A DNA stretch of 64,000 nucleotides from an uncultured Terracidiphilus sp. (GCA_964520005.1 CAZFMB010000008.1:10661-74660), one strand, 5' to 3'; positions 12,439 to 38,219 are shown, numbered from the stretch's first letter. Program-made: numbers and translations. The notes: a model not told the origin generated them from the sequence alone.

Positions 12439-12573
12439 CTCGCTGGCGCGCAAGCGCCGTATGCCTGGACGGCCAGTCCCCTCGACTCCCCCCTCTGCCT
12501 CATGTAAAATTCTCGCAATCAATTTTCACCATTCGCGACAGTTCTCTAATTTCTGCACGCAAAGGATCGTCTC

Positions 12574-14625: not shown

Positions 14626-14688
14626 TTCGACCGCTTCTTAATTATCGTGCGTTCCGTATTCTGTTGCATTGCAAGAAAGGACGAGTTC

Positions 14689-16638: not shown

Positions 16639-16688
16639 TGATCGCCGCGCACCTAGTTCTTTCTAAATTGGACCGGAATAGCCGGGTA

Positions 16689-16725
16689 CCCCGCCACCGG
16701 CACGTTCTTTGTGCCCAAGGCGGGG
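16689..16725. repeat. CCCC...GTTCTTT...GGGG REP-type hairpin
   Basis: CCCCGCCACCGGCAC-GTTCTTT-GTGCCCAAGGCGGGG, downstream of paralog 2. Confidence 0.75.
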
Positions 16726-16863
16726 CGCCTGCAACTACAGCCTTTAATAGTTTGGAAACACGCCAGCCCCCTCGACGCCGCTCTCGTGACGTTGTAAAAT
16801 CCTTGCAATCATTTCCAGCGTCTCGTTATAGGTCTCAAATTTTCTGAAAGCATAGGAAGTCTC

Positions 16864-18804
16864 ATGCGGATTTCTGTTTTCATGCGCCATTTGCCCCTGC
16901 TTCTCGCCCTCGCATCTCCGGCCCTCCTGCTCGCCCAGTTTCAGCAGCCCACCGACGAAGAACTCAAGATGACCGCCGACCCCAAAGCCCCCGGAGCCGC
17001 CGCCGTCTACCTATACCGCGAAGAAAACACCGATCACAGCGGTTCCAGTGGTGGTACTCAACGCTTCTATGAGCGCATCAAAGTGCTCACCGAAAAGGGC
17101 AAAGAGCAGGCCACAATTCGCATTTCTTATAATCCTGATAAAAGTAATGTCACGGATATCCAAGGCCGCACCATTCACCCTGATGGAACCGTCATTCCTT
17201 TTACAGGCAAACCCTCCAATATGGTGGGCCTCAAGACTAAGGGTTACCAGATCAACTACATGGTCTTCACCCTGCCCAACGTCGAGGTCGGTAGCATCCT
17301 GGAATACCGCTATATCTATTCCGGTGAGATTCCCGTGCCCATATGGTGGATTCAACAGCAATTATTTGTCCACAAAGAGCACTACTCATACATTCCCAGC
17401 AATATTAGCAACCAGTTATATGAGACTTATATTCACTCCGATGCCAAGGTGATTTGTTGCAAAAACAACACTTATACGCTAGACATTACCGACGTCCCGC
17501 CCCTTCCCGATGAGGATTGGATGCCGCCGTTAAATACTTTCAAGTGGCGAGTAGAGTTCTTTTACACCACGTACAGCTCCGCCAATGAATACTGGGACAA
17601 CACGGGTAAAAATTGGGCTAAGATTGTGCGCAACTTCACCGATCCAACGAAAGGGCTCAAGAAAGCCGTAGACGGGATTATCGCTCCCACCGACACCGAT
17701 CAACAAAAAGCCGCTAAAATTTATGCCGCCGTACAAAAGCTCGACAACACCGTCTTTAGCCGGGTAAAATCTCAGGCCGAGCGTCATCAAGAAAAGCTTA
17801 AAAACATTCATAATGCAGAGGATGTCTGGAATCAGCAGAGCGGTACGGATGATGAGATCACGCTGCTCTACGTGGCTCTCGCCCGCGCTGCAGGACTCAA
17901 GGCCTGGCCCATGCAGGTGGTTGACCGTAGTCGCGCCGTCTTCGATCATTCCTACCTGTCCACCAGGCAGTTCGACGATTTCCTTGCCATCATCGTGATT
18001 GATGGCAAAGAGGTATATCTTGACCCCGGACAAAAAATGTGCCCCTTTGGCAGTCTGCATTGGAAACACACTCTCGCGTCAGGCTTCCGACTTTCGGACA
18101 AGGGCGCGGTTATCGATAGTACCCCCGACAGCAACTATAAAGATTCGGTGGTTCAAAAGATCGCGGATATTACCATCAGCGAAGATGGAGGCGTGAACGG
18201 TACGGCGCGTGTTGTTCTGTCGGGCCCGGAGGCGCTCTACTGGCGGCAATTGGCCCTTCAGAACGACGAGGATGAAGTTAAAAAGCAGTTCATCGAGTCG
18301 TTGCGTAACTCCCTTCCTGACGGTGTACAGGCTGATATCGACCACTTTGTCGCGCTAGACGACAGCAGCACCAATCTGATCGGAGTAATTAAGCTCAGCG
18401 GCAATATCGGCGCCGCTTCCAGCAAGCGTCTAATCTTTCCCGCCTTCTTCTTTGAATCCCGCGCCAAACATCCCTTCATTGCACAGAACAAGCGTATTAC
18501 CTCTATTGATCTTCACTACGCAAAGATAGAGCAGGATGATGTCACCTTTCACATGCCCTCCGGCTACACCATCGAGAGCGCACCCGATTCTTCCGAAGCT
18601 ACTTGGCCCGATCACGCTTCGCTGCGGATTTTCATCACCGCAAAGGAGGATTCGTTCGAAGTGGAGCGCATACTTACACCCAGCTTTCATTTGCTCAATC
18701 CCGTCGAATACGACTACCTCCACGACTTCTATTTGAAGCTGGCCGCCTCCGACCAGCAGCAACTCGTTTTCACGCGCCCTTCTGCCGCCAAAGGAACCCA
18801 ATGA
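16864..18804 (+). CDS. DUF3857 / transglutaminase-like protein, paralog 3 (Cys and His absent)
   Basis: Same N-terminal 50 aa as paralogs 1, 2 and 5. Core reads SGTDDEITLLYVALARAAGL. Its stop overlaps the next gene's start (ATGA at 18801-18804). Confidence 0.7.
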   Translation: MRISVFMRHLPLLLALASPALLLAQFQQPTDEELKMTADPKAPGAAAVYLYREENTDHSGSSGGTQRFYERIKVLTEKGKEQATIRISYNPDKSNVTDIQGRTIHPDGTVIPFTGKPSNMVGLKTKGYQINYMVFTLPNVEVGSILEYRYIYSGEIPVPIWWIQQQLFVHKEHYSYIPSNISNQLYETYIHSDAKVICCKNNTYTLDITDVPPLPDEDWMPPLNTFKWRVEFFYTTYSSANEYWDNTGKNWAKIVRNFTDPTKGLKKAVDGIIAPTDTDQQKAAKIYAAVQKLDNTVFSRVKSQAERHQEKLKNIHNAEDVWNQQSGTDDEITLLYVALARAAGLKAWPMQVVDRSRAVFDHSYLSTRQFDDFLAIIVIDGKEVYLDPGQKMCPFGSLHWKHTLASGFRLSDKGAVIDSTPDSNYKDSVVQKIADITISEDGGVNGTARVVLSGPEALYWRQLALQNDEDEVKKQFIESLRNSLPDGVQADIDHFVALDDSSTNLIGVIKLSGNIGAASSKRLIFPAFFFESRAKHPFIAQNKRITSIDLHYAKIEQDDVTFHMPSGYTIESAPDSSEATWPDHASLRIFITAKEDSFEVERILTPSFHLLNPVEYDYLHDFYLKLAASDQQQLVFTRPSAAKGTQ

Positions 18805-20792
18805 TAGACATTTCGCTTTCTTCCAGTCCTGTTCGTTTCTTAGCCGCTGCTCTGTTGGTGCTTGCATGCCAGCCCGCCCACGCCAACTGGTTTGGCGGCA
18901 AGCAGGACCCTCCGCAGTGGGGCCTCGACGCCGCCAAGACTCCCACCCCCGCTAACGTCAAGGATGCCGCCTCTGTCATCCTCTATGACGAGTACCTCGA
19001 AACCGTAGACGCCCAGGGCCGCGCCACCGAGCGCGAGCGCGTGGTCAGGCGCATCCTCAAGCCACAGGGCCGCGGCGATGCATACTGCTTGGTCTCCTTC
19101 GACGTGGACGAAAAAATCAACTACTTCCGCGAATGGACCATCGCCGCGGACCAGAAGCAATATCAAGCCCAGGACACCGATTTCATCGACGTAGGAAACC
19201 CCGGCAGCTCCACCATGCTCACCACTCACAAAGTCCGCGGCGTAAATCCTCCCGCCGCCGATGTCGGCGCCACCATCATCTGCGAGTCCGAGAAGTTAGT
19301 CGCGCCCTACCTACAGGAGACAGTCTGGCAAATCCAGGATCATGTTCCCGTCGTCTTCCAAGCCCTTGAGGTTGACCTGCCCGCCGGCCGCGCGCACTCC
19401 GAGGCATGGCACAGATACACGCCCGTAAAGCCCGTCGAGGTTGCTCCCAATCACTGGCGCTGGGAGATTAAAGATATGCCCGCCCTAAACCTGCGCGACG
19501 TAAAATCTCATCCCGAATGGGAAGCTCTCGCCGCCCGCATGTCCGTCCAATGGGGCGATGCCGCCGTGGACGGCAAAGACAATCAATGGCGCGCCATCGG
19601 TCAGTGGACAACTGCGCTGCAAGAGCATCGCACCGACCCCTCGCCCGAAATCACCGCCCAAACCCAAAGCCTTATCGCCGGAGCGCCCGACTTCGTCTCC
19701 AAGCTCACCCGCATCACCGAGTACATCCAGAAAAACATCCGTTACTTCATCGTCATGCGCGGCATCGGCGGATTGCAGGCGCATCCCGCATCCGACATCT
19801 TCCGCAATCGCTACGGCGACTGCAAAGACAAAACCACCCTGCTCATCTCCATGCTCCAGGTCGCCGGCATACACGCCTTTTACATGCCTGTCGACAGTCG
19901 CCGCGACGTCGTCGATCCCGATGCGCCATCCCTTTTCGGCAATCACATGATTACCGCTATCGAGATTCCCGCCGATGTGCAGGACCCGCGACTCAAGGCC
20001 ATCGTCAAAGCCAAAGACGGCAAGCGATACCTCATCTTCGACCCAACCGACGAGCGCACACCCGTCGGCAATCTGCCTTCGGAAGAGCAAGGTAGCTATG
20101 GCATCCTCGCCGCCGGACCCGCAAGTCAGATCATTGCCCTACCCGTGCTTGATCCGGATGCCAACGGCACAGAACAAAAAGGTACATTCACTCTCGCGCT
20201 CGACGGCACCCTGACCGGCTCCATCGATACCTCTTCTATCGGACCCAAAGGCGCCGGTCTGCGCGAGTTCCTCAAGTACACCGACGAAAAGGAGCGACGC
20301 CAATACTGGGAGAAGTACGTAGCTACATCTCTTCCCGGCGTCACTCTCGACACTTTTCAATTTGTCCAGCCCGCTGCCCTAGACAAACCCCTCGAGTTCC
20401 ACTACAAGGTCACCGCCCGCCAATACTCCCATCAAGCCGGTCCGCTCCTGCTCGTCCGCCCCCGCGTCATCGGCTCCTATGCTGAGGCCTTCGACGACAA
20501 GCCGCGCATCTATCCCATCGATCTCGACGCCACCGGTCGCTGGCATGCCAGCTTCGACATCACCATCCCGCCCGGTTATGTCGTCGATGAAACGCCCGAC
20601 CCTATCTCGCTGGATCTTGACTTCGCCAGCTACCGCTCCTCGGTCACGGCCAAAGGAAGTCTCCTCCACTACGAGCGCGAATACGTCGTTCGCCAGGTCG
20701 AACTCCCGCCCGCCAAATACGCCGATTTCCGCCACCTTGAATCCGTCATCCTTTCCGACGAAAAAAACGCCGCCGTCCTCAAAAAACAGTAG
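18801..20792 (+). CDS. DUF3857 / transglutaminase-like protein, paralog 4 (Cys-His-Asp triad intact)
   Basis: Start MIDISLSSSPVRFLAAALLVLACQPAHA (signal peptide) at 18801. Core YGDCKDKTTLLISMLQVAGI, then GNHMITAIEI and LIFDPTDE. The upstream part of the listed ORF (18603-18800) overlaps paralog 3. Confidence 0.75.
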   Translation: MIDISLSSSPVRFLAAALLVLACQPAHANWFGGKQDPPQWGLDAAKTPTPANVKDAASVILYDEYLETVDAQGRATERERVVRRILKPQGRGDAYCLVSFDVDEKINYFREWTIAADQKQYQAQDTDFIDVGNPGSSTMLTTHKVRGVNPPAADVGATIICESEKLVAPYLQETVWQIQDHVPVVFQALEVDLPAGRAHSEAWHRYTPVKPVEVAPNHWRWEIKDMPALNLRDVKSHPEWEALAARMSVQWGDAAVDGKDNQWRAIGQWTTALQEHRTDPSPEITAQTQSLIAGAPDFVSKLTRITEYIQKNIRYFIVMRGIGGLQAHPASDIFRNRYGDCKDKTTLLISMLQVAGIHAFYMPVDSRRDVVDPDAPSLFGNHMITAIEIPADVQDPRLKAIVKAKDGKRYLIFDPTDERTPVGNLPSEEQGSYGILAAGPASQIIALPVLDPDANGTEQKGTFTLALDGTLTGSIDTSSIGPKGAGLREFLKYTDEKERRQYWEKYVATSLPGVTLDTFQFVQPAALDKPLEFHYKVTARQYSHQAGPLLLVRPRVIGSYAEAFDDKPRIYPIDLDATGRWHASFDITIPPGYVVDETPDPISLDLDFASYRSSVTAKGSLLHYEREYVVRQVELPPAKYADFRHLESVILSDEKNAAVLKKQ

Positions 20793-20807
20793 CCTCTATA
20801 TGTCCGG

Positions 20808-20860
20808 GTGCCCCACCTTCGCCGATGTGCGTTCTTTGCACATCGGTTAAGGTGGGGCAC
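20808..20860. repeat. CCCC...GTTCTTT...GGGG REP-type hairpin (long form)
   Basis: GTGCCCCACCTTCGCCGATGTGC-GTTCTTT-GCACATCGGTTAAGGTGGGGCAC, downstream of paralog 4. Confidence 0.8.
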
Positions 20861-20991
20861 CTACAATTACAGCTCTTTGTAGCTCGGTGCAGTCCCCCCT
20901 CGACTCTACCCACTTTCCGTTATAGAATTCTTGCAATCAATTTTCACAACTCTCTACAGGTCTCTAATTTTCTGCACGCAAAGGAAGTCTC

Positions 20992-23028
20992 ATGCGGATC
21001 TCTGCTCTTGTGCGCTACCTGCCCCTGCTTTTCGCCCTCATGTCTCCGGCTTTCCTGCGTTGCCAGTTCCAGCAGCCCACCGACCAAGAGCTCAAGATGA
21101 CCTCCGATCCCAAGGCCCCCGGAGCCGCCGCCGTCTACCTCAACGTAGAGGAAATCACCGACGATCCGCACAGCTCTCAAAGCTTTTACGCCCGCATCAA
21201 GGTGCTTACCGAGAAGGGCAAGGAGCTGGCCATTGTCGATCTCCCCCCTTATCTGCGCGGCACATCCAAGATTACAGACATTAAAGCCCGCACCATCCAC
21301 CCCGACGGAACTGTCATTCCCTTAATCGGCAAGCCACAGGACCTATTGGTCGTCAAGGGAAAAACCGGCAAAGATGAGCAAATACAGGTCAACCGCAAGG
21401 TTTTCACTTTGCCCAGCGTCGAGGTTGGCAGCATCCTCGAGTACGCCTATACAATCCAGAATGACGAAAATATCTGCTCCTCTCCCCACTGGGAGATTCA
21501 GCGGCCCTACTTCGTACACAAGGCCCACTACTTCTTTACGCCCTCAAGGCAATTCCTGCGCGGAAGCCTGAATCAGTCCAACCTGTATATGGAGGACGAA
21601 CATCAGCGCTTAATCAACTCTATTATCTGGTGGAAACATCTTCCTGCGGGTGTGTCCGTGAAATCAGACACCTCCGGCCATTTCAGTCTCGATATCACCG
21701 ATGTTCCTCCCGCTCCCGATGAGGAGTGGATGCCTCCCGTTGAGAGCGTTCTTTATAGGGTGTTCTTTTATTACAAAGCCGCCAGCAGCTCAAGCGATTT
21801 TTGGATCAACGACGCCAAGCTCTGGTCCAGGGACGTGGATAAATTCGCCGAACCTTCCAATTCCATCAAGCAAGCGGTCTCCAGCCTGATTGCCCCAGCC
21901 GACACGGACCTCGACAAGGCAAAGAAACTCTACAAAGCAGTCCAGGCCCTTGACAACACCGACTATACACGCAGGAAATCTGAATCCGAAATGAAGCAGC
22001 TCAACCTGAAGGCCGCAAGGCACGCCGAAGATATCTGGGCGCAGAAAAGCGGCTCGAGCGAGGACATCGCCCTCCTCTACCTCGCCATGCTCCGCGCAGC
22101 GGGCCTCACCGCCTATGCCACTAAGGTCGTTGATCGTCAGCGCAGTGTCTTCGACATTTCCTACCTCTCTTTATCCCAGCTAAACAGTACAATTGTGATT
22201 CTCAATTCCGATGGAAAAGAAATCTACCTCGACCCCGGTGAAAAGATGTGCCCCTTCGGGACCGTAAACTGGAGGCACTCCAGTGCCGGCGGCCTTACGC
22301 AGTCCGCAAAAGGCGTCTTGGGTATCACAACCAGAACCCAGCCCTATGCCGAGAACAAAACTTTGCGCATTGGCGATGTCTTCCTCGACTCCAACGGAGC
22401 CATCACCAGCAACTTCCACTTTGTTATGACCGGCCAGGTTGCCCTTTACTGGCGTCAAAAAGCCCTTGCCAACGACGAAGCTGAAGTCAAAAAACTCTTC
22501 GACAAGTCACTCGAATCCATCTTCCCCGACGGTGTCGAAGCCCACATCGATCACTTCACCGGGCTCGACGATCCCGACGTGGACCTGATCGCCATCATCA
22601 ATGCAAAAGGCGCCATCGGTGTCGCCTCCTCCAAACGCCTCATGCTCCCTGCATTCTTCTTCCAGACACGCGGCTCGCATCCTTTCACCGCTCAGGAAAA
22701 ACGCACTCAGCCCGTCGATATGCAATATGGCGATTTAGTTTCCGATCAGGTCATCTATCACCTGCCCGACGGCTTTGCAGTCGAAGGCGCGCCTCAGGAC
22801 GCCCAGATTCCCTGGCCACAACGCGCGAATTTCATAACCAAATCCACCCCCGCACCCCGCTCAATCACCATCAACCGATCGCTGGCCCGCGCCTTTACCT
22901 TCGCCAAGCCTGAGGAATACCAGGACCTCCGCGCCTTTTATCAGAAAATCGCCGCAGCCGACCAGGCCCAGATCGTCCTCTCCAAATCCGCTCCAGCCCC
23001 CGCGCCTCCCGCGCCGAAAGGCAACTGA
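20992..23028 (+). CDS. DUF3857 / transglutaminase-like protein, paralog 5 (Cys and His absent)
   Basis: Closest to paralog 1. Core reads SGSSEDIALLYLAMLRAAGL. The C-terminus APKGN is shared with paralogs 1 and 2. Confidence 0.7.
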   Translation: MRISALVRYLPLLFALMSPAFLRCQFQQPTDQELKMTSDPKAPGAAAVYLNVEEITDDPHSSQSFYARIKVLTEKGKELAIVDLPPYLRGTSKITDIKARTIHPDGTVIPLIGKPQDLLVVKGKTGKDEQIQVNRKVFTLPSVEVGSILEYAYTIQNDENICSSPHWEIQRPYFVHKAHYFFTPSRQFLRGSLNQSNLYMEDEHQRLINSIIWWKHLPAGVSVKSDTSGHFSLDITDVPPAPDEEWMPPVESVLYRVFFYYKAASSSSDFWINDAKLWSRDVDKFAEPSNSIKQAVSSLIAPADTDLDKAKKLYKAVQALDNTDYTRRKSESEMKQLNLKAARHAEDIWAQKSGSSEDIALLYLAMLRAAGLTAYATKVVDRQRSVFDISYLSLSQLNSTIVILNSDGKEIYLDPGEKMCPFGTVNWRHSSAGGLTQSAKGVLGITTRTQPYAENKTLRIGDVFLDSNGAITSNFHFVMTGQVALYWRQKALANDEAEVKKLFDKSLESIFPDGVEAHIDHFTGLDDPDVDLIAIINAKGAIGVASSKRLMLPAFFFQTRGSHPFTAQEKRTQPVDMQYGDLVSDQVIYHLPDGFAVEGAPQDAQIPWPQRANFITKSTPAPRSITINRSLARAFTFAKPEEYQDLRAFYQKIAAADQAQIVLSKSAPAPAPPAPKGN

Positions 23029-23169
23029 CAACCGCTTGGCACTCACAAATTGCCAGTTATCTTTTCAACAAACTTGGTTCATCTTGCAACTTTTCCTTCG
23101 CCCATCCTGCCAACCTGGGCCTATACTTCCTCTAGAGCAGGATTTTCACCACGGTTGCTCGTCTTCGCC

Positions 23170-23694
23170 ATGGCCATGCAACTTCCCCAGAATCGCGCTC
23201 CAGAATCGCCCGCAATCCCCGACCGCCTCTACTTCAAGATTGGCGACGTCGCCCGCATCTGCGGCGTTGAAGCCTATGTCCTGCGCTTTTGGGAATCCCA
23301 GTTTCCCCAGCTCAAGCCCAACAAAAGCGGCGCCGGCCAGCGCCTATACCGCCGCAAAGATGTTGAGCTAGTATTGAAGATCAAGCACCTGGTCCACACC
23401 GAGGGCTACACCCTCTCCGGCGCTCGTCAGGCATTGGAGCAGGCCCACACCCGCAAGTCGCCCCCGACAGAGCAACACTCCAAATTGCCGCAGTTAGCCG
23501 TTGTCCCCGCCCAGCCCGCTTCTACCCGGTCGCGGGATGAGGCCGCCGCCACCATCGCCCATGCCCGCAATGAACTCCGCGAAATTGCCGGCATGCTCGC
23601 CTCGCCTGAGCCTCAGTCGCCGCAGCTTCCGCCACGACGCCGCTCCCGCCTCGCCACCATGCCCTCCAAATCAGACACACTTTTCCCGCTTTAA
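23170..23694 (+). CDS. MerR-family transcriptional regulator
   Basis: [54 protein letters not shown] is a MerR-type HTH. Start taken at MAMQLPQ (23170); the listed 23050 start is an extension. Confidence 0.8.
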
Positions 23695-26100: not shown

Positions 26101-26570
26101 CACTCGGGCCACATCGCCATGTATTGTGTCAGGGCACGACTTCACAGCTTGCGGAAAAAAGAACCAGCATGGTTACACATCAAGATTCTACGAATCACTC
26201 GGAGCGGAATTAAAGGACTTACGAGCCCTTGTCCCGGCCGAAAATCATCGAAATTACTACTTTGATTCTTTTTTCCGCAAGCTGTTCAGTGAAGATTATG
26301 CACTTGACACAGACATAGATTTGTACTGCGATTGATTGTAATGACAAGTGGCGAATTGTTATATCTTGATAGGACTGTTTAAGAAAAGGCGCATCTTTCG
26401 CCTTATATACCCATTTAAGGAAATACTCAACACTTTATAGTCAGTTTTCCACATATATTTTGCATGGTCTGTGGATAACTTATTGCGCAATTGGTGAAAC
26501 AAGTCGATAATTCGGGAAGGACGTAGGAAGGTTTGCTCCTTTCGCCTACGCTCCCAATTCTCTACGCTGA

Positions 26571-26594
26571 GAGGCTCCGCAAGGAGCCTCTTTT
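26571..26594. terminator. GC hairpin + T-run (intrinsic-terminator-like)
   Basis: GAGGCTCC-GCAA-GGAGCCTC followed by TTTT on the plus strand. It lies 4 nt beyond the stop of the minus-strand NYN gene. Confidence 0.5.
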
Positions 26595-26597
26595 GCG

Positions 26598-27329
26598 TTA
26601 GCACGTTTTTTCGAGGAAATCTCGCAATGCTGCCACATCAACTATTTGTAAACCCCTAGATTTAAGGGCATTCAGTTCTGATGCAATATGCCTAGCCGTA
26701 CCGAATACGCTAACTTGGCGTTTTGCGTTAAGAATGACTGTCAATGGATCAGCGAAATCGCTATCCCCACTGAAAAGACAAAAGCTGTCCGCCTCATTGA
26801 GCTGAAAGGCGATACGCATATCAGTTCCAATCTCAACATCAAAGTTGCATTTCCAGCACTCCAGGTGCAACAAACCGCTCCCATTCAAGGTTCTTAATTC
26901 GTTGTTGAGGCAAGCAATTGTCTGCTCACTTAATCGGTTGAGCAATGTTTTGTCTATAAAGTTCGAAAGGGGGTCTTTGGAGAGCGGATCGGCAACATTT
27001 GAAACGTCAATCGATAGCTGCATCTTTTTTACTGCTTTGGTGCGGATCGTGTATCCGCACCTATGCACGAAGGTCATGAAACGGTTGGCGCTCTCATCTT
27101 TGCGTAGTGTTCCAAAGTAGAATCGCACTTCTTTTACGCCAAAGGAATCGAGAAAATCCTTGAGTTTTTTCAGATCGATTTCCCACCCAAGCCTTTTTCT
27201 CCACTCTCGAACATTACCAAAATCGATATATACAATGGTCCGCTCTGTAAGTAGTTTTTCGAGCAAAGACACCCGCTCCGCGTGGTTCCCTGCGGCGAAC
27301 CCCAACGCGAAAGTCTTAGGTTTGAACAT
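26598..27329 (-). CDS. NYN (LabA/DUF88, PIN-like) domain nuclease
   Basis: The conserved acidic positions occur in canonical order: VYIDFGNV, KCNFDVEIGTDM, LFSGDSDFADPL, followed by VSVFG. AT-rich gene, co-directional with and 68 bp downstream of the CRISPR array. Confidence 0.7.
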   Translation of the reverse strand: MFKPKTFALGFAAGNHAERVSLLEKLLTERTIVYIDFGNVREWRKRLGWEIDLKKLKDFLDSFGVKEVRFYFGTLRKDESANRFMTFVHRCGYTIRTKAVKKMQLSIDVSNVADPLSKDPLSNFIDKTLLNRLSEQTIACLNNELRTLNGSGLLHLECWKCNFDVEIGTDMRIAFQLNEADSFCLFSGDSDFADPLTVILNAKRQVSVFGTARHIASELNALKSRGLQIVDVAALRDFLEKTC

Positions 27330-27397
27330 TTTTTAACCCATATGGAGCATGAGGATCATAATACAGGGAAGCAAGGGGGAGGGTATGTCCCTCAGAG

Positions 27398-27696
27398 GTT
27401 TCCGTCAGCCGTGAATGGACGCCACTCTACGGCTGTCGCTCACTCGCAGACCGCTCCCTGTGCGTTTCAGTCAGCCGTGAATGGACGCCCCTCTACAGCC
27501 ATTTCTCCTGCTGTGCCGTTATTGTGAGGTTTCAGTCAGCCGTGAATGGACGCCCCTCTACAGCCGGCGGCGGGCGGGCGAGGGCGAGTTTGCGGTTTCA
27601 GTCAGCCGTGAATGGTCGCCCCTCTACAGCGAAATTGGTGAACTAACCCGCACGAAAGAAGTTTCAGTCAGCCGTGAATGGACGCCCCTCTACAGC
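27398..27696. CRISPR. CRISPR array, 5 x 36-bp repeats, 4 spacers
   Basis: Repeat GTTTCAGTCAGCCGTGAATGGACGCCCCTCTACAGC at 27398-27433 (3 mismatches), 27464-27499, 27529-27564, 27595-27630 (1 mismatch) and 27661-27696. Spacers are unique and 30, 29, 30 and 30 bp long. The repeat has no internal palindrome. Confidence 0.85.
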
Positions 27697-27992
27697 TGAT
27701 TAGTTCTAAATCGCTGACAAGTATCGAGATCGAAACAAGTGAACTTCGAAAAAAGAGAAAATATCGCCACTGGAAATCGCTGTTTCGTCCATTTATTTGT
27801 CAAATATCGGTGCAAGGGCGAAGCCCGACCGGCGGGCACAAACCCTCCGGTAACGCACCTCGGCTGTTCGGACCAGGGGATGGTCGGTTACGCGGTAACC
27901 GTGAGGATACCGTCATTCGCCTATCCGCCCAGTGCCCGGCCGCGAAACTACTGGTTTCCTTGCCCTGGGGCAATGGAACCGTCCCGGCCGTC

Positions 27993-29603
27993 TTACTCGT
28001 TCTCGATAAGCTCCTTCAACCACTGTTGAAAGAGATCGAACTTCTTGAATTTACCACCATTTTCAATTTGATGCAGTCCGCGCAAAGCAATAATCAGGCT
28101 CGCATTGGAATCCGCATTGGCTTCGTGGCCGCAAGCCATACACAGGAACACGTCCTGAATCGCTTTTCCGGCTGCGTCTTTCTTAGGCCGATTTGCCGCA
28201 TCCTTGTGTCCGCACCGTGCGCAAGTTTGCGAGGTATAAGCCGCAGGAACCTCGACCGGGGCTGGCAGACCTTCGCGCTCTGCCTTGTATGTGAGCATCT
28301 GCTTGAGCTTGGTGAATTGGCTTTGCTTCAGGAACCGGCCCATCGTTACACCCTTGATGGCTTCGATAACGATCTGGGAGCGGTTCTCTTTGGCAATGGA
28401 TACGATCCGATTGGCATATTCGCCTAGAATGATGTCGGCGCGCTTTCCGCGCAGTGAAAATTTGCGTGACCGTTGCTTGCCACTTTGCTGTAGACGCTTG
28501 ATTTGCTGCTCGTATCGCTGCATCTCCGCCGCAAAGGCCGTGCCTTCCAGGTCGAGATTAGTCTTAATCGGTTTGCCTTCACGGTCGATCAGGGTTGCGG
28601 CGCCTATCTTCGCTGCTCCGCGGTCGATGCCAAGGAAAGTTTCTGTCTCTACGATTGGAGGCGTGAATTCGAAGGCCGCGTGGACGTAAAAGTCGTAATC
28701 CTCGGCGCTGAAATGGACTGGCTGATTGGCCGAAACTTTGACATTCGTGTGAGGATACTCATGGCGTTTTACGACTAGTTTTGCGCTTTGGATGGAACCA
28801 TGCGTGAGATATTCACTTTCATGGAATTCGCGGCCCAGTTCCAGGGGCAGAATCATGCCGGGATATTTCTTGCCTTCAATACGTTCCTTTGTTTTGCAGT
28901 TGATAACTCCTTCGTTGAGTACGCGCTTCTCGCAATAGCGGTGATCTTGTGAGAATAGCCGGACGAGCAGATAGTAGTTCCCGTCGCAAAAGGCAAGCAG
29001 GCAACCACGTCCAATCTCGTTGCGTGTGAATTCGATAGGGTGGGGGAGAGTGCCTTCCAACTTGCGCAATATCTGACCAGCGGCGCGTGAGACGGCCCAA
29101 TTGGTGTAGATTTTGCTCAGACGTTTAGCGACGCGGATTTCGCCTCGCTCCATTGCCTTGCCAATCTTTTCCTGATGCTGCGGTTTAATGGTCAGCTTCG
29201 CTTCGGGGTCTGTAAATAGGCTGTAGGCTTGCCGATACTCATCCTCGGACATAGGGTCAAGGTTGGATACAGTGGGTGGATTGGATTCGTTCTCACCTTT
29301 GTATGTCTTGTTGAGGTGACTCATGAGCATCGCAGATGCGTCATTGATGAGATAGTCGCGTAGAGGAGAAAGCTCCCAATCATGCGGAGCAATCGTGTAA
29401 AGGAGTTTACTGAGTTTGAATTTGTTGGGACGAAGTTTCTCTTTCCTGTCCAGTTCTGAAACTTGCTCTAGCAGACCAGGGATTGCCAGCGTCTTTTCGA
29501 GCACGTCCTTCAAAGTCTCGTGGTAGCGGGTCATCGCATACCAGAGCATCGTGCTCTTGTGCCGTGACGGATTGTGGACCTTGAATCGCGCTGTCTTGAA
29601 CAT
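27993..29603 (-). CDS. CRISPR-adjacent TnpB/Cas12-family (type V-like) RuvC nuclease, 536 aa
   Basis: RuvC-I FLGIDRGAAKIG, RuvC-II SQIVIEAIKG, YTSQTCARCGH...FLCMACGHEANADSNASLIIA (CxxC..CxxC zinc ribbon + RuvC-III) in canonical order. N-terminus FKTARFKVHNPSRHKSTMLWYAMTRYHETL is like a TnpB/Cas12 WED start. The array lies 296 bp downstream. Confidence 0.8.
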   Translation of the reverse strand: MFKTARFKVHNPSRHKSTMLWYAMTRYHETLKDVLEKTLAIPGLLEQVSELDRKEKLRPNKFKLSKLLYTIAPHDWELSPLRDYLINDASAMLMSHLNKTYKGENESNPPTVSNLDPMSEDEYRQAYSLFTDPEAKLTIKPQHQEKIGKAMERGEIRVAKRLSKIYTNWAVSRAAGQILRKLEGTLPHPIEFTRNEIGRGCLLAFCDGNYYLLVRLFSQDHRYCEKRVLNEGVINCKTKERIEGKKYPGMILPLELGREFHESEYLTHGSIQSAKLVVKRHEYPHTNVKVSANQPVHFSAEDYDFYVHAAFEFTPPIVETETFLGIDRGAAKIGAATLIDREGKPIKTNLDLEGTAFAAEMQRYEQQIKRLQQSGKQRSRKFSLRGKRADIILGEYANRIVSIAKENRSQIVIEAIKGVTMGRFLKQSQFTKLKQMLTYKAEREGLPAPVEVPAAYTSQTCARCGHKDAANRPKKDAAGKAIQDVFLCMACGHEANADSNASLIIALRGLHQIENGGKFKKFDLFQQWLKELIENE

Positions 29604-29691
29604 GGACGTGAATCTAGCAAGCTAGTCTATTCCCGCAACTGAGCTACTCGCAACTTTCTTTCCCGCCATCGGTTTTCCTCGTATCCGCGTC

Positions 29692-30424: not shown

Positions 30425-31321
30425 TTATTCCCCAGCGAGTTGCTCCAGCAGCCCATCAAAATCCTCCAGCCGCGCGTATTCAATAATGACTTTGCCGTGG
30501 CCGTCGTGATCTTCAATGTGAACCTTCAGTCCCAGCGCTCTCTGCAACCGCTCTTGCACCGCGCGAATATTCGGATCAAGAAGCCGCTCTGCTTTTTCTT
30601 CTTTTTTCGCGGCGCGATCGGGATGCGTAATCCCTTGTATATAAGCCTCTGATTGGCGAACGGAAAGCGAAAGTTTAATCATCCGCTGTGCCGCCATTTC
30701 CATCTCCTCGGCGTGCTCAAAGGCCAGCAGCGAACGCGCATGGCCATAGCTCAGATCGCCGGACTCCACACGTGCCTGTACGGACATCGGTAATCTCAAC
30801 AAACGCAAGTAGTTAGCTACAGTTGCCCGGTCCTTGCCGGTACGAACCGCCATCTGCTCCTGCGTCATGTGAAACTCGCGCGAAAGCCGCTCAAAAGCCC
30901 GCGCCTGCTCCATCGGATTCAGGTCCATCCGCTGCAGGTTTTCGACGATGGTGATCTCCATCGCCTGCTCGTCGGAGACTCTCCGCAGAATCGCCGGAAT
31001 GGTCTTCTTGCCGGCCATTTCCGAGGCCTTCCAGCGCCGCTCGCCCGCGATCAACTGGAAGCGGCCATTGGCCAGCGGGCGCACCAGCACCGGCTGCACA
31101 ACGCCATTGGCTGTGATCGAGGCGGCCAGCTCGCCCAGCTGCTCCTCATTCAATTGCGAGCGCGTCTGAAACGGGTTGCGATCGATTTGGTCGAGGGGGA
31201 TCTCGAGCGGCTTGCCCCCTTCACTCTCCGCGGCGGCGGGAGCGGCAGGGATGCGCGGCAAAAGGGAGTCGAGGCCCTTGCCCAGGGCGCGGCGTTTAAT
31301 GTCGGTAACGGTAGCATTCAT
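30425..31321 (-). CDS. parB: chromosome partitioning protein ParB/Spo0J
   Basis: ALGKGLDSLL, NPFQTR, LIAGERRWKAS, and HTH region TQEQMAVRTGKDRATVANYLRLLRLP. Confidence 0.9.
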   Translation of the reverse strand: MNATVTDIKRRALGKGLDSLLPRIPAAPAAAESEGGKPLEIPLDQIDRNPFQTRSQLNEEQLGELAASITANGVVQPVLVRPLANGRFQLIAGERRWKASEMAGKKTIPAILRRVSDEQAMEITIVENLQRMDLNPMEQARAFERLSREFHMTQEQMAVRTGKDRATVANYLRLLRLPMSVQARVESGDLSYGHARSLLAFEHAEEMEMAAQRMIKLSLSVRQSEAYIQGITHPDRAAKKEEKAERLLDPNIRAVQERLQRALGLKVHIEDHDGHGKVIIEYARLEDFDGLLEQLAGE

Positions 31322-31452
31322 AGTTCAATAACCTCTTTCCCGGAAGAGTGGCCGGGGGATTGAATCTGCATTGATCTGGGGTAATTTGCAATACCTGTTT
31401 TACCTACCCTGGCGCGTCTTTTGTTTTTGCGGCCAGGGCGGAAAGCCGTCCC

Positions 31453-32289
31453 TCAGGGGGTAGGCAAGATTCGAACCTCATCTACTGGCGCGACGGAGTT
31501 GAGATTCGCCTTCGGCGGAATCTCGATGCCGTTGCGCGCCAGAAACTCACCCGCCATTTCGAAGTAAGCCTCGGTGCCGCGGGAACGGGGATCGTACAGA
31601 GCCACTGGCTTGCCGTGGCTGGGCGCCTCGGCCAGCCGCACGTTGCGTGGAATTACGGTGTGGTAGAGGCGATCTTTGAAGTACTCGCGCAGAGTGTCTG
31701 TCACCTGCTGCGCCAGGTTGGTGCGGTCGTCGTACATAGTCATTAGAACACCCTCGATGGTCAGCGTGGGATTGTACGCGGCGCGCACTCGTTCGAGAGT
31801 GGAGATCAGCTCGGAGATTCCTTCCAGGGCGAAGTACTCGGCTTGCATGGGAACGATGAGCGTGTCGGCCGCAGCCAGAACGTTGAGGGTGAGCAGGTCA
31901 AGCGCCGGTGGGCAGTCCAGAATCACCAACTCGTAGTCTTCCTTGATTGACTCCAGAGCGCGACGCAAACGCAATGCGCGATCATCGGCCGTGGCCAGTT
32001 CGACATTGGCTCCGGTCAGGTTTTTGGAGCCGGGCAGCAGCGATAGCTTATCGATCTCTGTGGGCAGAATGACCTGCTCCGCGGGGGCGTCGCCCATCAG
32101 CACATCGTAGATGGAGCGGCGGTTGTCGTCGCGCTGGAATCCCAACCCGGAGGAGCAGTTAGCCTGGGGATCGCAGTCCACCAGGAGAATCTTGATGCCT
32201 TGGAGAGCAAGGCAGGCGGCGAGGTTGATGGCTGTGGTCGTCTTGCCAACTCCGCCTTTTTGGTTGACGAGGCCGAGAATCTTTCCCAT
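31453..32289 (-). CDS. parA: chromosome partitioning ATPase ParA/Soj
   Basis: Deviant Walker A NQKGGVGKTTTAINLAA, plus LLVDCDPQAN and ILDCPP. Confidence 0.9.
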   Translation of the reverse strand: MGKILGLVNQKGGVGKTTTAINLAACLALQGIKILLVDCDPQANCSSGLGFQRDDNRRSIYDVLMGDAPAEQVILPTEIDKLSLLPGSKNLTGANVELATADDRALRLRRALESIKEDYELVILDCPPALDLLTLNVLAAADTLIVPMQAEYFALEGISELISTLERVRAAYNPTLTIEGVLMTMYDDRTNLAQQVTDTLREYFKDRLYHTVIPRNVRLAEAPSHGKPVALYDPRSRGTEAYFEMAGEFLARNGIEIPPKANLNSVAPVDEVRILPTP

Positions 32290-33463: not shown

Positions 33464-34209
33464 GGGGCTTAGGAAGAAAAGGCCGTCAGATTGGGTTCTT
33501 TCTCAAGAGCGATAGTAGCACTTTGTAGAGGTCATTGTTGCGGTGATTGAAGCGAAATTCTGTTTCTTTCAGATGGAGCGGAAAGGTACATTTGCTCACG
33601 CCGTGAAACTTCGTCAAGCGGTGTTTGGCAAAGCCCCAAAAGCTCTCGATGCCGTTGATGTGATTCGGTCCGGCGGCAAATTCGCTGTCCCCGTGAAGGA
33701 CGCGAAAGTGTCGAGCGTAGCCGAGATCAACCAGGCCGTCGTAGCCGCTCCAACCGTCGGTATGAATCGTAGAATCGAACGAGGCATGATTGCGAATCAC
33801 CGCTTGTAGAGCGGCTCTTGAGACATTCGACATGATTTGCGCGTAGACCTTGTCGTCGCGTTTGAGCAGTCCGAAGACGATTGTTTGCGATCCGCGCCAC
33901 GCCCGCGCTTACCACGAACACGATGTGGTCCGAAGTAAGATTCGTCGGCTTCGAGATCGCCGCTAAAGGGCGACAGCTTTTCACATTCTTGGGCAAGTTT
34001 TTCTCTGAGCCGTTGAAAGATAGGGTTGACGCTACGCACCGAAATGCCCGTCATCTTTGCCGTCTGAGAGGCAGACAGATCAAGCGCGAAACAGCGCAAA
34101 AGTTGGCGAAATCTGGCCTCGGAAATCTTCGCAAAACGAAAATAGCGGTTAACCTGCTGCATGGCAATATGTTAACGCCACTCAACTATGCCTTTTCTTC
34201 CTAAGCCCC
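33464..34209 (-). mobile_element. IS1595-family insertion sequence (746 bp) with perfect 20-bp IRs and 8-bp TSD
   Basis: IR GGGGCTTAGGAAGAAAAGGC at 33464-33483 and its exact reverse complement at 34190-34209. Flanking direct duplication TTTCCTTT at 33456-33463 and 34210-34217. Confidence 0.85.
33486..34162 (-). pseudogene. IS1595 (ISXO2-like) transposase, frameshifted
   Basis: The N-terminal frame (34162 down to about 33885) reads ...YFGPHRVRGKRGRGA. The continuation IVFGLLKRDDKVYAQIMSNVSRAALQAVI...HTDGWSGYDGL...GIESFWGFAKHRL is in another frame. The shift lies near 33880-33895. Confidence 0.75.
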
Positions 34210-36840: not shown

Positions 36841-37581
36841 ATGTGCGTCCATATCGCCATTCCCGAGCCCACCGGTTCCGATTCGGAATACAACCAGCGA
36901 ACCTTGCCCACCTATCTCGCCGCCCTTCGCTCCGCAGGGGCCACGCCCATCATCGTTCCGCTGCACGAGCATCAGGACCGTGTCGCGCGCCTGCTCGCCG
37001 GGGTCCACGGGGTACTTTTGCCCGGCAGCAAATTCGACGTAGATCCGCAGCGATATGGCGAGGCTGCGCTCCCCAAGTGCGGCCCGGCCGACCCAGCCCG
37101 CGCCGCCGTTGACGAGCTGCTGCTGCAAGACGCCTTCAACCTCCACAAGCCCATGCTGGGCATCTGCGGCGGCATGCAAACCTTGAATGTGTGGCTCAAT
37201 GGCTCACTCACACAGCACCTCACAACCACTGTCAATCACAGCCCAGGCCGCGAAGTGACGGAGGCTCACCCCGTTCGCATCACTCCCGGCTCGCGCATCG
37301 CCAGCCTAAGTTCTGAGGCCGAGCCCGTGGTCAACTCCTCGCACCACCAGGCAATTAAAGTCGTCGGCGACGGCCTGGTGGTGAGCGCCGTTTCTCCGCA
37401 CGACGGCATCATTGAGGCCGTCGAACTTGACTCCAGCGAGCACTTTGTTCTTGGAGTCCAGTGGCATCCCGAGAGGACATACACACAGAGCGCCTTCTCG
37501 CGCGCCATCTTCGCAGCCTTCGTGCAGGCCGCAGTTGTCTGGAAGCCACGCCTAATTGAAGACTCGAAGGAGCCAGCGTGA
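36841..37581 (+). CDS. class I glutamine amidotransferase / gamma-glutamyl-GABA hydrolase-like (peptidase C26)
   Basis: GICGGMQTLNV (nucleophile Cys), SSHHQAI, GVQWHPE. Confidence 0.8.
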   Translation: MCVHIAIPEPTGSDSEYNQRTLPTYLAALRSAGATPIIVPLHEHQDRVARLLAGVHGVLLPGSKFDVDPQRYGEAALPKCGPADPARAAVDELLLQDAFNLHKPMLGICGGMQTLNVWLNGSLTQHLTTTVNHSPGREVTEAHPVRITPGSRIASLSSEAEPVVNSSHHQAIKVVGDGLVVSAVSPHDGIIEAVELDSSEHFVLGVQWHPERTYTQSAFSRAIFAAFVQAAVVWKPRLIEDSKEPA

Positions 37582-38219
37582 GCGAGGAGGCTGTGGTCGA
37601 GCGCCTCAACGCTCTTCTCATTGAGTCGGCTCAGGCCCCGCTCGACCCTGTTTTAACCAAAAGCTTCGAAGATTTATATTCGCTCTTTGTTCGCTGGGGC
37701 GCGCGCGTCAACCTCTCCGCCATTCGCGACCAGGAGGGAATCCTCTCCCGCCATTTTGTCGAGTCCATAGCCTGCGCCCGCGCACTACCTGCTGGCATCT
37801 CGACGTTGCTCGACTTCGGCTCCGGCGCGGGCTTTCCGGGGATTCCGATTACGCTCTGCCGGCCGGAGATTGCCGTGACTCTTGCCGAGTCGCAAGGAAA
37901 AAAAGCTGCATTTCTACAGGAAGCTGCTCGTGTCTTGGGTATCTCCGCAAAAATTTACTCCGGCCGCGCCGAAGAGCTTCAGGCCGTCTTCGATTGCGTA
38001 ACCTTGCGCGCCGTCGACAAAATGGACCGGGCCGTCCAGGCAGCGGCCAAGCTCGTTCGTCCCGGCGGATGGCTGGCGCTGATGACCACCGCCGCAGCGA
38101 TTCCCGCTCTCAAGGCGTTCGCCGGAGCGGAATTCATCTGGACTGCCACGCCTCTGTTTCCCGGCAACGACAACCGCCTGCTCGCTCTCGGAAAACGCTC
38201 GCTCAATTCGCCATCTTGA
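37578..38219 (+). CDS. rsmG: 16S rRNA (guanine527-N7)-methyltransferase
   Basis: LLDFGSGAGFPGIPI and the general GidB layout. GTG start overlaps the upstream stop (GTGA). Confidence 0.9.
   Translation: MSEEAVVERLNALLIESAQAPLDPVLTKSFEDLYSLFVRWGARVNLSAIRDQEGILSRHFVESIACARALPAGISTLLDFGSGAGFPGIPITLCRPEIAVTLAESQGKKAAFLQEAARVLGISAKIYSGRAEELQAVFDCVTLRAVDKMDRAVQAAAKLVRPGGWLALMTTAAAIPALKAFAGAEFIWTATPLFPGNDNRLLALGKRSLNSPS

Follow-up and report, generated by a model that had tools for sequence, protein, structure and literature searches.

Introduction

Cas12e (CasX), the effector of type V-E CRISPR-Cas systems, possesses additional domains and is encoded in loci that also contain cas1, cas2 and cas4. 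According to Altae-Tran et al. (PNAS 2023; PMC10691335), 40 extra CRISPR-linked branches of type V have been designated V-U6 to V-U45, and a "greater Cas12f branch" is heterogeneous and devoid of cas1/2/4. A preprint (bioRxiv 10.64898/2026.03.27.714800) catalogues more than 20 clades of the TranC nucleases (transposon-CRISPR intermediates; Jin et al., Cell 2025), among them a "clade 20" with a mean length of 513 aa, repeats of 36/38 bp and 3-12 repeats per array; the same text describes the trans-activating CRISPR RNA (tracrRNA) of Cas12n as overlapping the 3' end of the open reading frame (ORF), which ends in a dispensable tail. One survey of Cas14 gave zero matches in Acidobacteria, and in our literature search no paper was found that links Cas12, Cas14 or type V to the acidobacterial family described here. 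The present analysis concerns a miniature Cas12-family gene and its adjacent CRISPR array in a 64,000-nt stretch of DNA from an uncultured Terracidiphilus sp. (GCA_964520005.1, CAZFMB010000008.1:10661-74660; the whole stretch is referred to as the window; source contig: JGI (Joint Genome Institute) Ga0455670_0000897, 140.6 kb). In all probability, a soil acidobacterium (Acidobacteriaceae, Terracidiphilus-like) possesses in this locus a type V CRISPR-Cas interference module that is complete and stands alone. An earlier interpretation of the window (below: the sequence-only reading) had proposed, as the first of two alternatives, a compact tracrRNA-dependent type V effector with a small array and no adaptation genes; the linkage of effector and array among relatives and the covariation of the RNA with the repeat agree with this proposal.

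Anatomy of the locus and linkage of effector and array

The cas12 gene (27993-29603) and the array (27398-27696) are located in the window together with the following elements, given in the order of the minus strand:

29624-29653, minus strand: promoter-like element, TTGCGA-18 nt-TAGACT, ending 20 nt before the ATG (13-sequence alignment)
27993-29603, minus strand: cas12-family effector gene, 536 aa (RuvC motifs, Pfam, hidden Markov models, alignment, AlphaFold2 model)
27993-28007: 15-nt insertion GAGAACGAGTAAGAC relative to most homologs, which brings the stop codon and lets the ORF end 3 nt before the tracrRNA
27804-27989, minus strand: predicted tracrRNA scaffold core, ~186 nt, beginning 3 nt past the stop codon of the window ORF (nhmmer, RNAalifold, covariation)
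27862-27866, minus strand: anti-repeat 1 (pseudoknot-like), CAGCC, pairing with repeat nt 24-28, GGCUG
27779-27793, minus strand: anti-repeat 2/3 in the tracrRNA 3' tail (complementarity read from the sequence)
27697-27778, minus strand: leader, with a T-run at 27747-27761 and a clade-conserved GTCAG..N..TTAG motif just upstream of the first repeat
27398-27696, minus strand: CRISPR array of five repeats, GCTGTAGAGGGGCGTCCATTCACGGCTGACTGAAAC in minus-strand reading (repeat search)
27661-27696: repeat R1, leader-proximal
27631-27660: spacer S1
27595-27630: repeat R2 (1 mismatch)
27565-27594: spacer S2
27529-27564: repeat R3
27500-27528: spacer S3
27464-27499: repeat R4
27434-27463: spacer S4
27398-27433: repeat R5, terminal (3 mismatches)

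As had been read from the sequence before, the 36-bp repeat (plus strand GTTTCAGTCAGCCGTGAATGGACGCCCCTCTACAGC) is present in five copies separated by spacers of 29-30 bp; the copies start at 27398, 27464, 27529, 27595 and 27661 with 3, 0, 0, 1 and 0 mismatches, respectively, and no further copy was found in the 64 kb (zero matches expected by chance). The gap between ORF and array measures 296 bp. The leader was assigned to the side of the array facing the gene because the degenerate terminal repeats are always gene-distal and because the spacer differences between strains fall at the leader end. In an alignment of 13 upstream regions only TTGCG-N18-TA(G/C/A)A(C/A)T and approximately 20 nt after it were kept, while sequences further upstream were unrelated; conservation upstream of the family's cas12 genes ends about 60 nt before the ATG and shows no terminal hairpins. 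The element at 29624-29653 forms the left edge of the conserved module and is likely to be the cas12 promoter; it was not called by a generic sigma-70 scan, the generic promoter and terminator scans being uninformative.

When 185,579 species genomes were scanned with a profile, 22 loci were obtained in metagenome-assembled genomes (MAGs), one in each MAG. Of these, 21 were labelled as Acidobacteriota (Acidobacteriaceae, Terracidiphilus, Granulicella, one Bryobacteraceae, one "Acidobacteria bacterium" and one uncultured Acidobacteriota) and one from a bin labelled Acidimicrobiales. Wherever a MAG locus extended 300 bp or more past cas12, an array of 3-13 repeats followed at a distance of 263-313 bp on the same strand (18 of 18 cases); the repeats were mostly about 36 bp long (36-38 bp where resolved) with a GAAAC end on the gene strand, and the spacers about 30 bp. 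Starting from the opposite side, a scan of JGI metagenomes for the repeat core gave 50 contigs: of the contigs reaching 900 nt or more beyond the array on its upstream side, all 28 encoded cas12 (72-92% identity), the tracrRNA was found on all 32 with at least 500 nt upstream, and the arrays comprised up to 18 repeats. Effector and array are therefore stably linked in the family (18/18 MAG loci and 28/28 contigs). The repeat is not dispersed in the manner of a repetitive extragenic palindromic (REP) element, since the 50-contig scan revealed it only beside cas12 and never as an orphan.

The common order in the informative relatives is promoter, cas12, a ~190-nt RNA, leader and array, whereas the neighborhoods differ, e.g. 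DUF433 and a ParE toxin pair in L024-L031 and spermine synthase/RNase H genes in the 90%-identical L093. From the differing surroundings and the upstream limit of conservation it follows that the unit inherited and moved consists of promoter, cas12, RNA, leader and array. None of the family was found on viral contigs in IMG/VR. Two relatives deviate in their arrays. L046 (Ga0187852_1002980) has the highest protein identity seen (92% over the C-terminal 144 residues present on the contig) and carries cas12 and tracrRNA followed by one repeat (737-772 reverse-complemented; 12175-12210 as stored) and then REP-like elements; its array has collapsed to a solo repeat. In L011 (11147-11579, Acidobacteriaceae), spacers of 29-30 nt and 39-40 nt alternate, and the 5' half of the repeat is strongly diverged.

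The tracrRNA and its pairing with the repeat

Nowhere in the locus is the DNA more conserved than in the approximately 190 nt directly after the gene. Searched with an nhmmer profile of the scaffold, the window gave a single match (27804-27989, E 6e-51), and all relatives contained the RNA as well, even loci that end before the array (strong in L004, L013 and L017; weak in L005, of which 34 nt are left). RNAalifold placed 45 pairs in the scaffold, 22 of them compensatory. A structure drawn by hand from the alignment contains eight intramolecular and three intermolecular helices with 77 pairs; 85.8% of its cells are paired compared with 33-45% in controls with the 3' partners shifted by 1-3 columns, changes on both sides occur in 42 of the 77 pairs, and none of 500 shuffles reached any of five measures. 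The same helices resulted from minimum free energy folding of the window RNA as a single sequence, which left both proposed anti-repeats unpaired. No Rfam family matched the tracrRNA region. A search of the repeat against the whole intergenic region with RNAduplex was not discriminating because the sequence is GC-rich, and it was dropped in favor of the covariation analysis.

The decisive helix, formed by anti-repeat 1 and the repeat (helix 7, 5 bp), is paired in 19 of 19 sequences with compensatory changes in four of its five pairs (variants CAGCC:GGCUG, CCCCC:GGGGG, CACCC:GGGUG, CCCAC:GUGGG and UCCGC:GCGGA). In the 3' tail of the tracrRNA, AAUGGACG (27786-27793) is complementary to repeat nt 13-20 (CGUCCAUU), and ACAGC is complementary to repeat nt 1-5 (GCUGU). 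The tail anti-repeat changes with the repeat in other clades (AAGGAGCG with CGUUCCUU in L020; CGGGAAU with AUUCCCG in L011) and forms a 14-bp duplex of -30 kcal/mol with the repeat of L008. Helices 11-12, which represent these tail anti-repeats, are paired in 61-67% in a poorly aligned region, and their support is below that of anti-repeat 1. According to the scaffold and its covariation with the repeat, the 296-bp gap encodes an adjacent tracrRNA, not flagged before, that pairs with the repeat.

In most homologs the ORF extends 13-14 codons (~42 nt) into the scaffold and ends in a tail of the form ...GRDGSxAxGQxxQ, its stop codon TAG lying inside the invariant tracrRNA motif CAGTAGTTTC. The window ORF, in contrast, ends before the RNA; therefore, the tail is conserved for the sake of the RNA and not of the protein. 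L010 and L046 contain their own, different insertions at this ORF/tracrRNA junction site.

The effector protein

The ATG at 29603 is the true start of the effector ORF, because the N-terminus MFKTARFKVHNPSRHK is kept in homologs; in the JGI annotation (518 aa) the start has been placed 18 codons further in. The predicted layout of the protein is as follows:

residues 1 to ~290: WED/REC N-terminal half
D327: RuvC-I
E414: RuvC-II
C461/C464/C488/C491: TNB ribbon
D498: RuvC-III

In an alignment of 38 family members (55-92% identity), D327 (GIDRG), E414 (IVIEA), D498 (NADSNAS) and the four ribbon cysteines are invariant, and every position invariant across the aligned family is intact in the window ORF (itself part of the alignment). 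Together with the Pfam match to Cas12f1-like_TNB (1.9e-17), this confirms the earlier assignment of a RuvC triad and a CxxC..CxxC ribbon to the 536-aa ORF; residues, Pfam match and fold agree in an arrangement of RuvC-I/II/III interrupted by the TNB ribbon, as in type V effectors.

Sequence models aligned only to residues ~281-512, and the N-terminal ~290 aa were without a sequence match. The highest scores were obtained with NCBIfam Cas12f2 (124.1 bits, cutoff 450; C-terminal half only) and the PADLOC Cas12f/Cas14b models (113 bits over residues 281-512), followed by the generic guided_TnpB model (88.6 bits, cutoff 100), NCBIfam Cas12e (74.7 bits, cutoff 200), PADLOC Cas12u4 (34.9 bits over 87 residues) and PADLOC Cas12u1 (31 bits). 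In the comparison with Cas12 and TnpB models that the sequence-only reading had suggested, no cutoff of a named subtype or of TnpB was reached. The family profile matched the PDB sequences of AsCas12f (5e-19), newer Cas12f structures (4e-18) and Cas12e (3e-14); weak matches were LaTranC (9jfo; 1.5e-3 over about 90 residues), UnCas12m4a (0.0085) and Cas12n (9j09; 0.014). The family comprises more than 400 sequence clusters and has a sharp boundary, at which scores fall from 373 to 159 bits (exhaustive HMMER search of 1.84 billion representatives); each of ten outgroup representatives is below every named-subtype cutoff.

The structure comparison, likewise proposed before, was carried out with a confident AlphaFold2 model of the monomer (mean predicted local distance difference test score 83.8, predicted template modeling (TM) score 0.71), in which a beta-strand is followed by a helical domain of ~170 residues, a beta-rich WED-like domain and RuvC with the zinc ribbon. 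According to Foldseek searches of the PDB, the effector resembles Cas12e and Cas12f: Cas12e occupied rank 1 (query TM scores 0.46-0.48; dVemCas12e 8xyc, E 1.2e-16, query TM score 0.46; PlmCasX 7wb0 was also among the top matches), and Cas12f structures followed below it (E 1e-15 to 1e-13, 14-17% identity, TM 0.36-0.48). All TM scores were at most 0.48 and identities to solved structures at most 17%; TnpB, Cas12n and TranC were absent from the top 50.

The source databases label the family "IS605 OrfB transposase", the generic guided_TnpB model gives 88.6 bits (cutoff 100), and the scaffold RNA overlaps the ORF 3' end in the way an omega-RNA does; these features would be compatible with a TnpB of the IS200/IS605 or IS607 type and its omega-RNA that lies beside an unrelated CRISPR array by chance. 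Such a coincidence is, however, contradicted by the array linkage in all informative MAG loci and contigs and by the covariation of the RNA with the repeat. No TnpA is located nearby, conservation upstream of the ATG ends without the terminal hairpins of a mobile element, each of the 22 MAGs contains a single copy, and the scores of IS200_TnpB (28.2 bits, cutoff 425) and IS607_TnpB (17.9 bits, cutoff 350) are very low. The ORF is thus no ordinary IS605/IS607 TnpB, and the chance association is effectively refuted.

Spacers, adaptation and targets

The 70 arrays of the family contain 467 spacers, 316 of them unique. Over 2100 nt comprising cas12, tracrRNA and leader, the loci L006 (CAVRAQ01; 11896-12723) and L082 show 99.9% identity; only two trailer-end spacers are common to both, whereas their 10 and 8 leader-proximal spacers, respectively, differ; L078 has the same two trailer spacers and a third leader-end set of four spacers (L082 and L078: metagenome contigs Ga0326727_10025214 and Ga0326728_10288685). 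This pattern, a classic mark of polarized acquisition, indicates recent leader-polarized gain of spacers. Internal spacer deletions and one duplication are also present in the arrays.

A PADLOC scan of the 54 non-overlapping window ORFs of at least 85 aa returned the 536-aa protein as the only Cas match, in line with the earlier statement that the window contains no cas1, cas2 or cas4. According to Pfam, +/-10 kb around the gene on the source contig encode no Cas1/2/4 and no Y1 or serine (IS605/IS607) transposase; the claim that Y1 and serine TnpA are missing from the entire 64 kb thus holds for these +/-10 kb, the search of the whole window being not exhaustive. Genes cas1/2/4 were not found within 10 kb of any family locus, and the Cas1/2/3/4/5/7 proteins from the loci of the sister lineage (see below) had no match in any family locus or in the window. 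Since adaptation genes are missing within 10 kb, spacer adaptation would be supplied in trans.

The array of the window is small, with only four spacers, five repeats compared with up to 18 elsewhere, a point change in R2 and a degenerate terminal repeat, and the 15-nt insertion truncates the C-terminal tail of the protein; in addition, the 92%-identical relative is reduced to a single repeat, and arrays can be static across samples. Decay of this particular copy, i.e. a locus that no longer interferes within an otherwise functional family, is nevertheless rather improbable: the ORF is full length with all family-invariant positions intact, the tracrRNA fits the family profile (see above) with all helices present, and it is precisely for the lost tail that the RNA, instead of the protein, accounts for the conservation.

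Proposed mechanism and its assessment

According to the arrangement of the locus, the conserved promoter would drive the 536-aa Cas12-family gene, and a structured tracrRNA of about 190-215 nt would begin where the ORF ends. Because this RNA overlaps the last 13-14 codons in most relatives, it may be excised from the mRNA like a TnpB omega-RNA. Past a leader of ~80 nt, the five-repeat array would be transcribed in the same direction, and the CRISPR RNA (crRNA) would retain the 3' part of the 36-nt repeat paired with the tracrRNA, presumably by the 5-bp internal helix CAGCC:GGCUG and the 3' anti-repeat contact AAUGGACG:CGUCCAUU. The complex of protein, tracrRNA and crRNA is expected to find DNA that matches the ~30-nt spacer beside a protospacer adjacent motif (PAM), and its intact RuvC site to cut the target DNA. 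New spacers would enter at the leader end by means of an adaptation machinery encoded elsewhere in the genome.

Cleavage of DNA is suggested by the invariant catalytic triad and by the nearest characterized relatives, Cas12f and Cas12e, which cut. As Cas12m keeps its RuvC for RNA processing only, an intact RuvC site is in itself no proof of DNA cleavage. The effector could alternatively be an RNA-guided DNA binder or silencer similar to Cas12m or Cas12c, which blocks transcription or replication and whose RuvC only processes pre-crRNA. The small arrays without adaptation or helper genes and without detectable phage protospacers would fit such a function, RuvC-dependent RNA processing is conceivable as no crRNA-processing enzyme is evident, and the profile matches in the PDB include a low-scoring Cas12m. 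Yet, the best relatives by sequence and structure are the cutters Cas12f and Cas12e, compared with only 31 bits for Cas12u1 and an E value of 0.0085 for UnCas12m4a; furthermore, the spacer sets change rapidly and nearly all of them are unique, as expected of defense and not of fixed regulation. A pure binder is therefore considered unlikely.

Several observations weigh against an active interference module. The folding z-score of the single RNA sequence is only -1.33 and unremarkable alone, and the ends and the processing route given above for the tracrRNA are predictions from the sequence. As adaptation genes are missing within 10 kb of all family loci, adaptation in trans is presumed. One abundant species has an 8-repeat array that is identical on eight contigs from different samples, and the 92%-identical relative L046 contains a single repeat; because of this static array and the solo repeat, some family copies may be idle, and the turnover of spacers is episodic. 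The spacer comparison, which the sequence-only reading had proposed, revealed no protospacer in the material covered: no self-match of the 316 spacers to the window and all family loci at up to 4 mismatches; no match of 126 of the 316 unique spacers to GenBank phages (the other ~190 and plasmids were not searched); no match of 7 spacers to IMG/VR by exact 22-mers; and no match of 1 spacer to JGI metagenomes. As no protospacer was found, the PAM-dependent targeting and the role in defense are suggested by analogy with characterized Cas12 systems. The complete type V interference module remains, with high probability, the best explanation of the locus.

Sister lineage and origin of the array

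The P0139 group (37% identity, about 500 aa), which is the outgroup closest to the family, differs in its genomic context: its gene is located between cas4-cas1-cas2 of a type I operon (with cas7/DevR, cas5 and cas3 upstream) and the array of the same operon. The two loci are:

L037:5425-11699: P0139-group locus, 27 repeats
L039:4211-10855: P0139-group locus, 43 repeats

The scaffold of this group is recognizably homologous to that of the acidobacterial family (..CTCTGGCAGTTAGGCGATTGAC.. ..TGCTCATAGAGCA) and contains 9 nt that are exactly complementary to the type I repeat, their relative position being identical in L037 and L039; about 3% of shuffled repeats do as well. Judged by these features, the P0139 group appears to be a small Cas12 that shares the array of a class 1 system.

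Other relatives with arrays are L041 (415 aa; 6 repeats), L042 (8 repeats) and L034 (GCA_024712105.1), in which a 4-repeat array lies beside a distant relative of 501 aa; the same 501-aa protein in L033 (GCA_024712125.1) is accompanied by a single repeat at that position and another copy further downstream. L036 on the Pseudoalteromonas spongiae plasmid NZ_CP023400.1 encodes a full-length relative (488 aa, 25% identity) annotated as TnpB; an unannotated array (22775-23231) of 8 units with a 60-nt period, repeats of about 28 nt and spacers of 32 nt is positioned immediately upstream of this gene, i.e. in an orientation opposite to the acidobacterial family. L040 resides on a phage-like contig, and the outgroup P0140, a singleton on a short contig, probably contains a frameshift and lacks an array within 700 bp, so that it gave no information. 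No relative borne on an insertion sequence was seen among the neighboring branches inspected. The term "TnpB-to-Cas12 intermediate", considered in the sequence-only reading, is hence only loosely apt: since the inspected neighbors are already CRISPR-associated, the family is placed inside a CRISPR-associated, Cas12f-like assemblage and not at the boundary of TnpB and Cas12.

It is conceivable, if speculative, that the family represents an undescribed type V subtype which is widespread in peat and soil Acidobacteriaceae and whose effectors depend on the arrays of other CRISPR systems, the acidobacterial branch being a free-living descendant with a mini-array that borrows its adaptation in trans. 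If true, it would provide a concrete case of the "insertion next to pre-existing array" route from TnpB-like nucleases to Cas12. Leader-polarized gain without linked adaptation genes, together with a sister lineage embedded in type I loci, bears on the question of how TnpB-derived nucleases gain arrays and adaptation.

Genomic neighborhood and composition

The CRISPR module is flanked by ParA/ParB/ORF6N genes on one side and a NYN gene on the other. The features adjoining the array are:

26598-27329, minus strand: NYN-domain (LabA-like RNase) gene, 243 aa, beginning 69 nt past the last repeat
26359-26604, minus strand: 81-aa ORF downstream of the NYN gene, without family match

The GC content amounts to 0.42-0.46 over 26200-27400 (NYN block), 0.50-0.55 over cas12 and 0.56-0.65 in the flanks. 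The dip in GC noted in the sequence-only reading is therefore real, whereas its single AT-rich block of 3.6 kb resolves into two compositional blocks; the gain of a 3.6-kb islet as one unit was ruled out, the conserved module extending only from the array's end to ~60 nt upstream of the cas12 start codon. Situated in the lowest-GC block on the same strand as the array, the NYN gene was considered as an accessory crRNA-processing RNase; this was rejected, as tblastn gave no homolog in the 22 related loci and the closest relative (L093, 90% identity) has other neighbors. Among the Pfam tables of nine loci (L023-L031), the NYN gene appeared only in L023, which is the window's own contig. The gene and the lowest-GC block (26200-27400) are outside the CRISPR system and absent from all other loci; because it adjoins cas12 in no other locus, the NYN gene is probably a separate horizontally acquired gene. 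The NYN, ORF6N and ParB proteins of the window had no tblastn match in the 22 MAG loci, and the window deacetylase had one weak, distant match.

A degenerate REP copy had been proposed for 26126-26160. A REP-like consensus does exist elsewhere in the window, the hairpin element AGGGCACGACTTCAGTCGTGCC being present at 10587-10608 and 11943-11964; the copy at 26126 deviates from it by more than 3 mismatches and is much more degenerate. The same element recurs in related acidobacterial intergenic DNA, namely in the upstream regions of L001/L004 and in L046. A 28-nt inverted repeat is located at 26139-26166 / 26263-26290. Genes parB, parA and gidB were identified at 30425-32289 and about 37578-38216, a further ORF matches DNA_pol3_beta (dnaN-like), and the cumulative GC skew of the window has its minimum near 31 kb, which places the CRISPR module in an origin-proximal region of the chromosome. 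At 33486-33833, approximately 4 kb from cas12, a 115-aa fragment of an IS1595-type DDE transposase, unrelated to IS605/IS607, is accompanied by small helix-turn-helix transposase-like ORFs. Five large paralogs (646-729 aa) with DUF3857, some with a transglutaminase core, are arranged in a row at 12574-23028.

Comparison with known systems

By the present analysis, what had been annotated as an "IS605 OrfB transposase" gene is resolved into all parts of a CRISPR system: a putative promoter, the effector, a tracrRNA whose anti-repeats are mapped, the leader and the array. This information is enough for the design of a single-guide RNA and for a test of the 536-aa nuclease, whose relationship to the compact editors in use is only distant.

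The effector shares with IS200/IS605 TnpB and its omega-RNA the RuvC/TNB core and a scaffold RNA that begins inside the ORF 3' end. It differs from TnpB by the absence of TnpA within 10 kb and of transposon ends, by one copy per genome, by a multi-spacer array and separate tracrRNA instead of a single fused guide, and by about 130 extra residues; the scores of the TnpB models are far under their cutoffs. Like the TnpB-derived effectors of TranC and V-U6 to V-U45 (300-600 aa), it is linked to an array downstream of the gene without linkage to cas1/2/4, and its omega-RNA-like scaffold is split into tracrRNA and crRNA. The size and repeat statistics of TranC clade 20 are similar to those of the family in a comparison by description only; LaTranC (9jfo), the sole TranC compared by sequence, matched with E 1.5e-3 over about 90 residues. 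The family may already be present, unnamed, in the published catalogues (V-U6-45, TranC clades); if it corresponds to a catalogued V-U or TranC clade, the present work would be of value only as a good annotation together with a model of the tracrRNA. In the accessible sources we could not find a description of the tracrRNA model, of the evidence for adaptation in trans or of the sister lineage inside type I loci.

Cas12n (type V-N, formerly V-U4) is likewise miniature and stand-alone with small arrays, and its tracrRNA overlap with the ORF 3' end recurs in the homologs, the window ORF stopping 3 nt short; in contrast, sequence similarity is restricted to TNB/RuvC-III (Cas12u4 34.9 bits; 9j09 E 0.014). 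Cas12e accounts for the top Foldseek matches and, as proposed for the present family, depends on a tracrRNA. Its solved chains of about 880-990 aa are, however, considerably longer than the 536 aa found here, the Cas12e model scores 74.7 bits with a cutoff of 200, and the family is without cas1/2/4 at the locus. With Cas12f/Cas14 (type V-F; AsCas12f, Un1Cas12f1, Cas14b) the effector has in common the size class of 400-700 aa, the order WED-REC-RuvC-TNB-RuvC, a tracrRNA encoded between the effector and a downstream array and, as usual for bacterial members, the absence of cas1/2/4; the best profile matches (Cas12f2 124 bits, Cas12f/Cas14b 113 bits) and Foldseek matches down to E 1e-15 point in the same direction. 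The differences to Cas12f are the low score (124 bits, cutoff 450) confined to residues ~281-512, the identity of 14-17% with TM scores of 0.36-0.48, and a scaffold of its own that overlaps the ORF end in the homologs. Cas12f works as an asymmetric homodimer on a single guide RNA; the structure model of the present effector covers the monomer. By analogy, the family appears to be functionally equivalent to types V-F, V-E or V-N, i.e. a tracrRNA-dependent Cas12. No curated model names it, and it forms a distinct lineage within the Cas12f-like assemblage, for which Cas12f and Cas12e are, at a weak level of similarity, the closest known groups.

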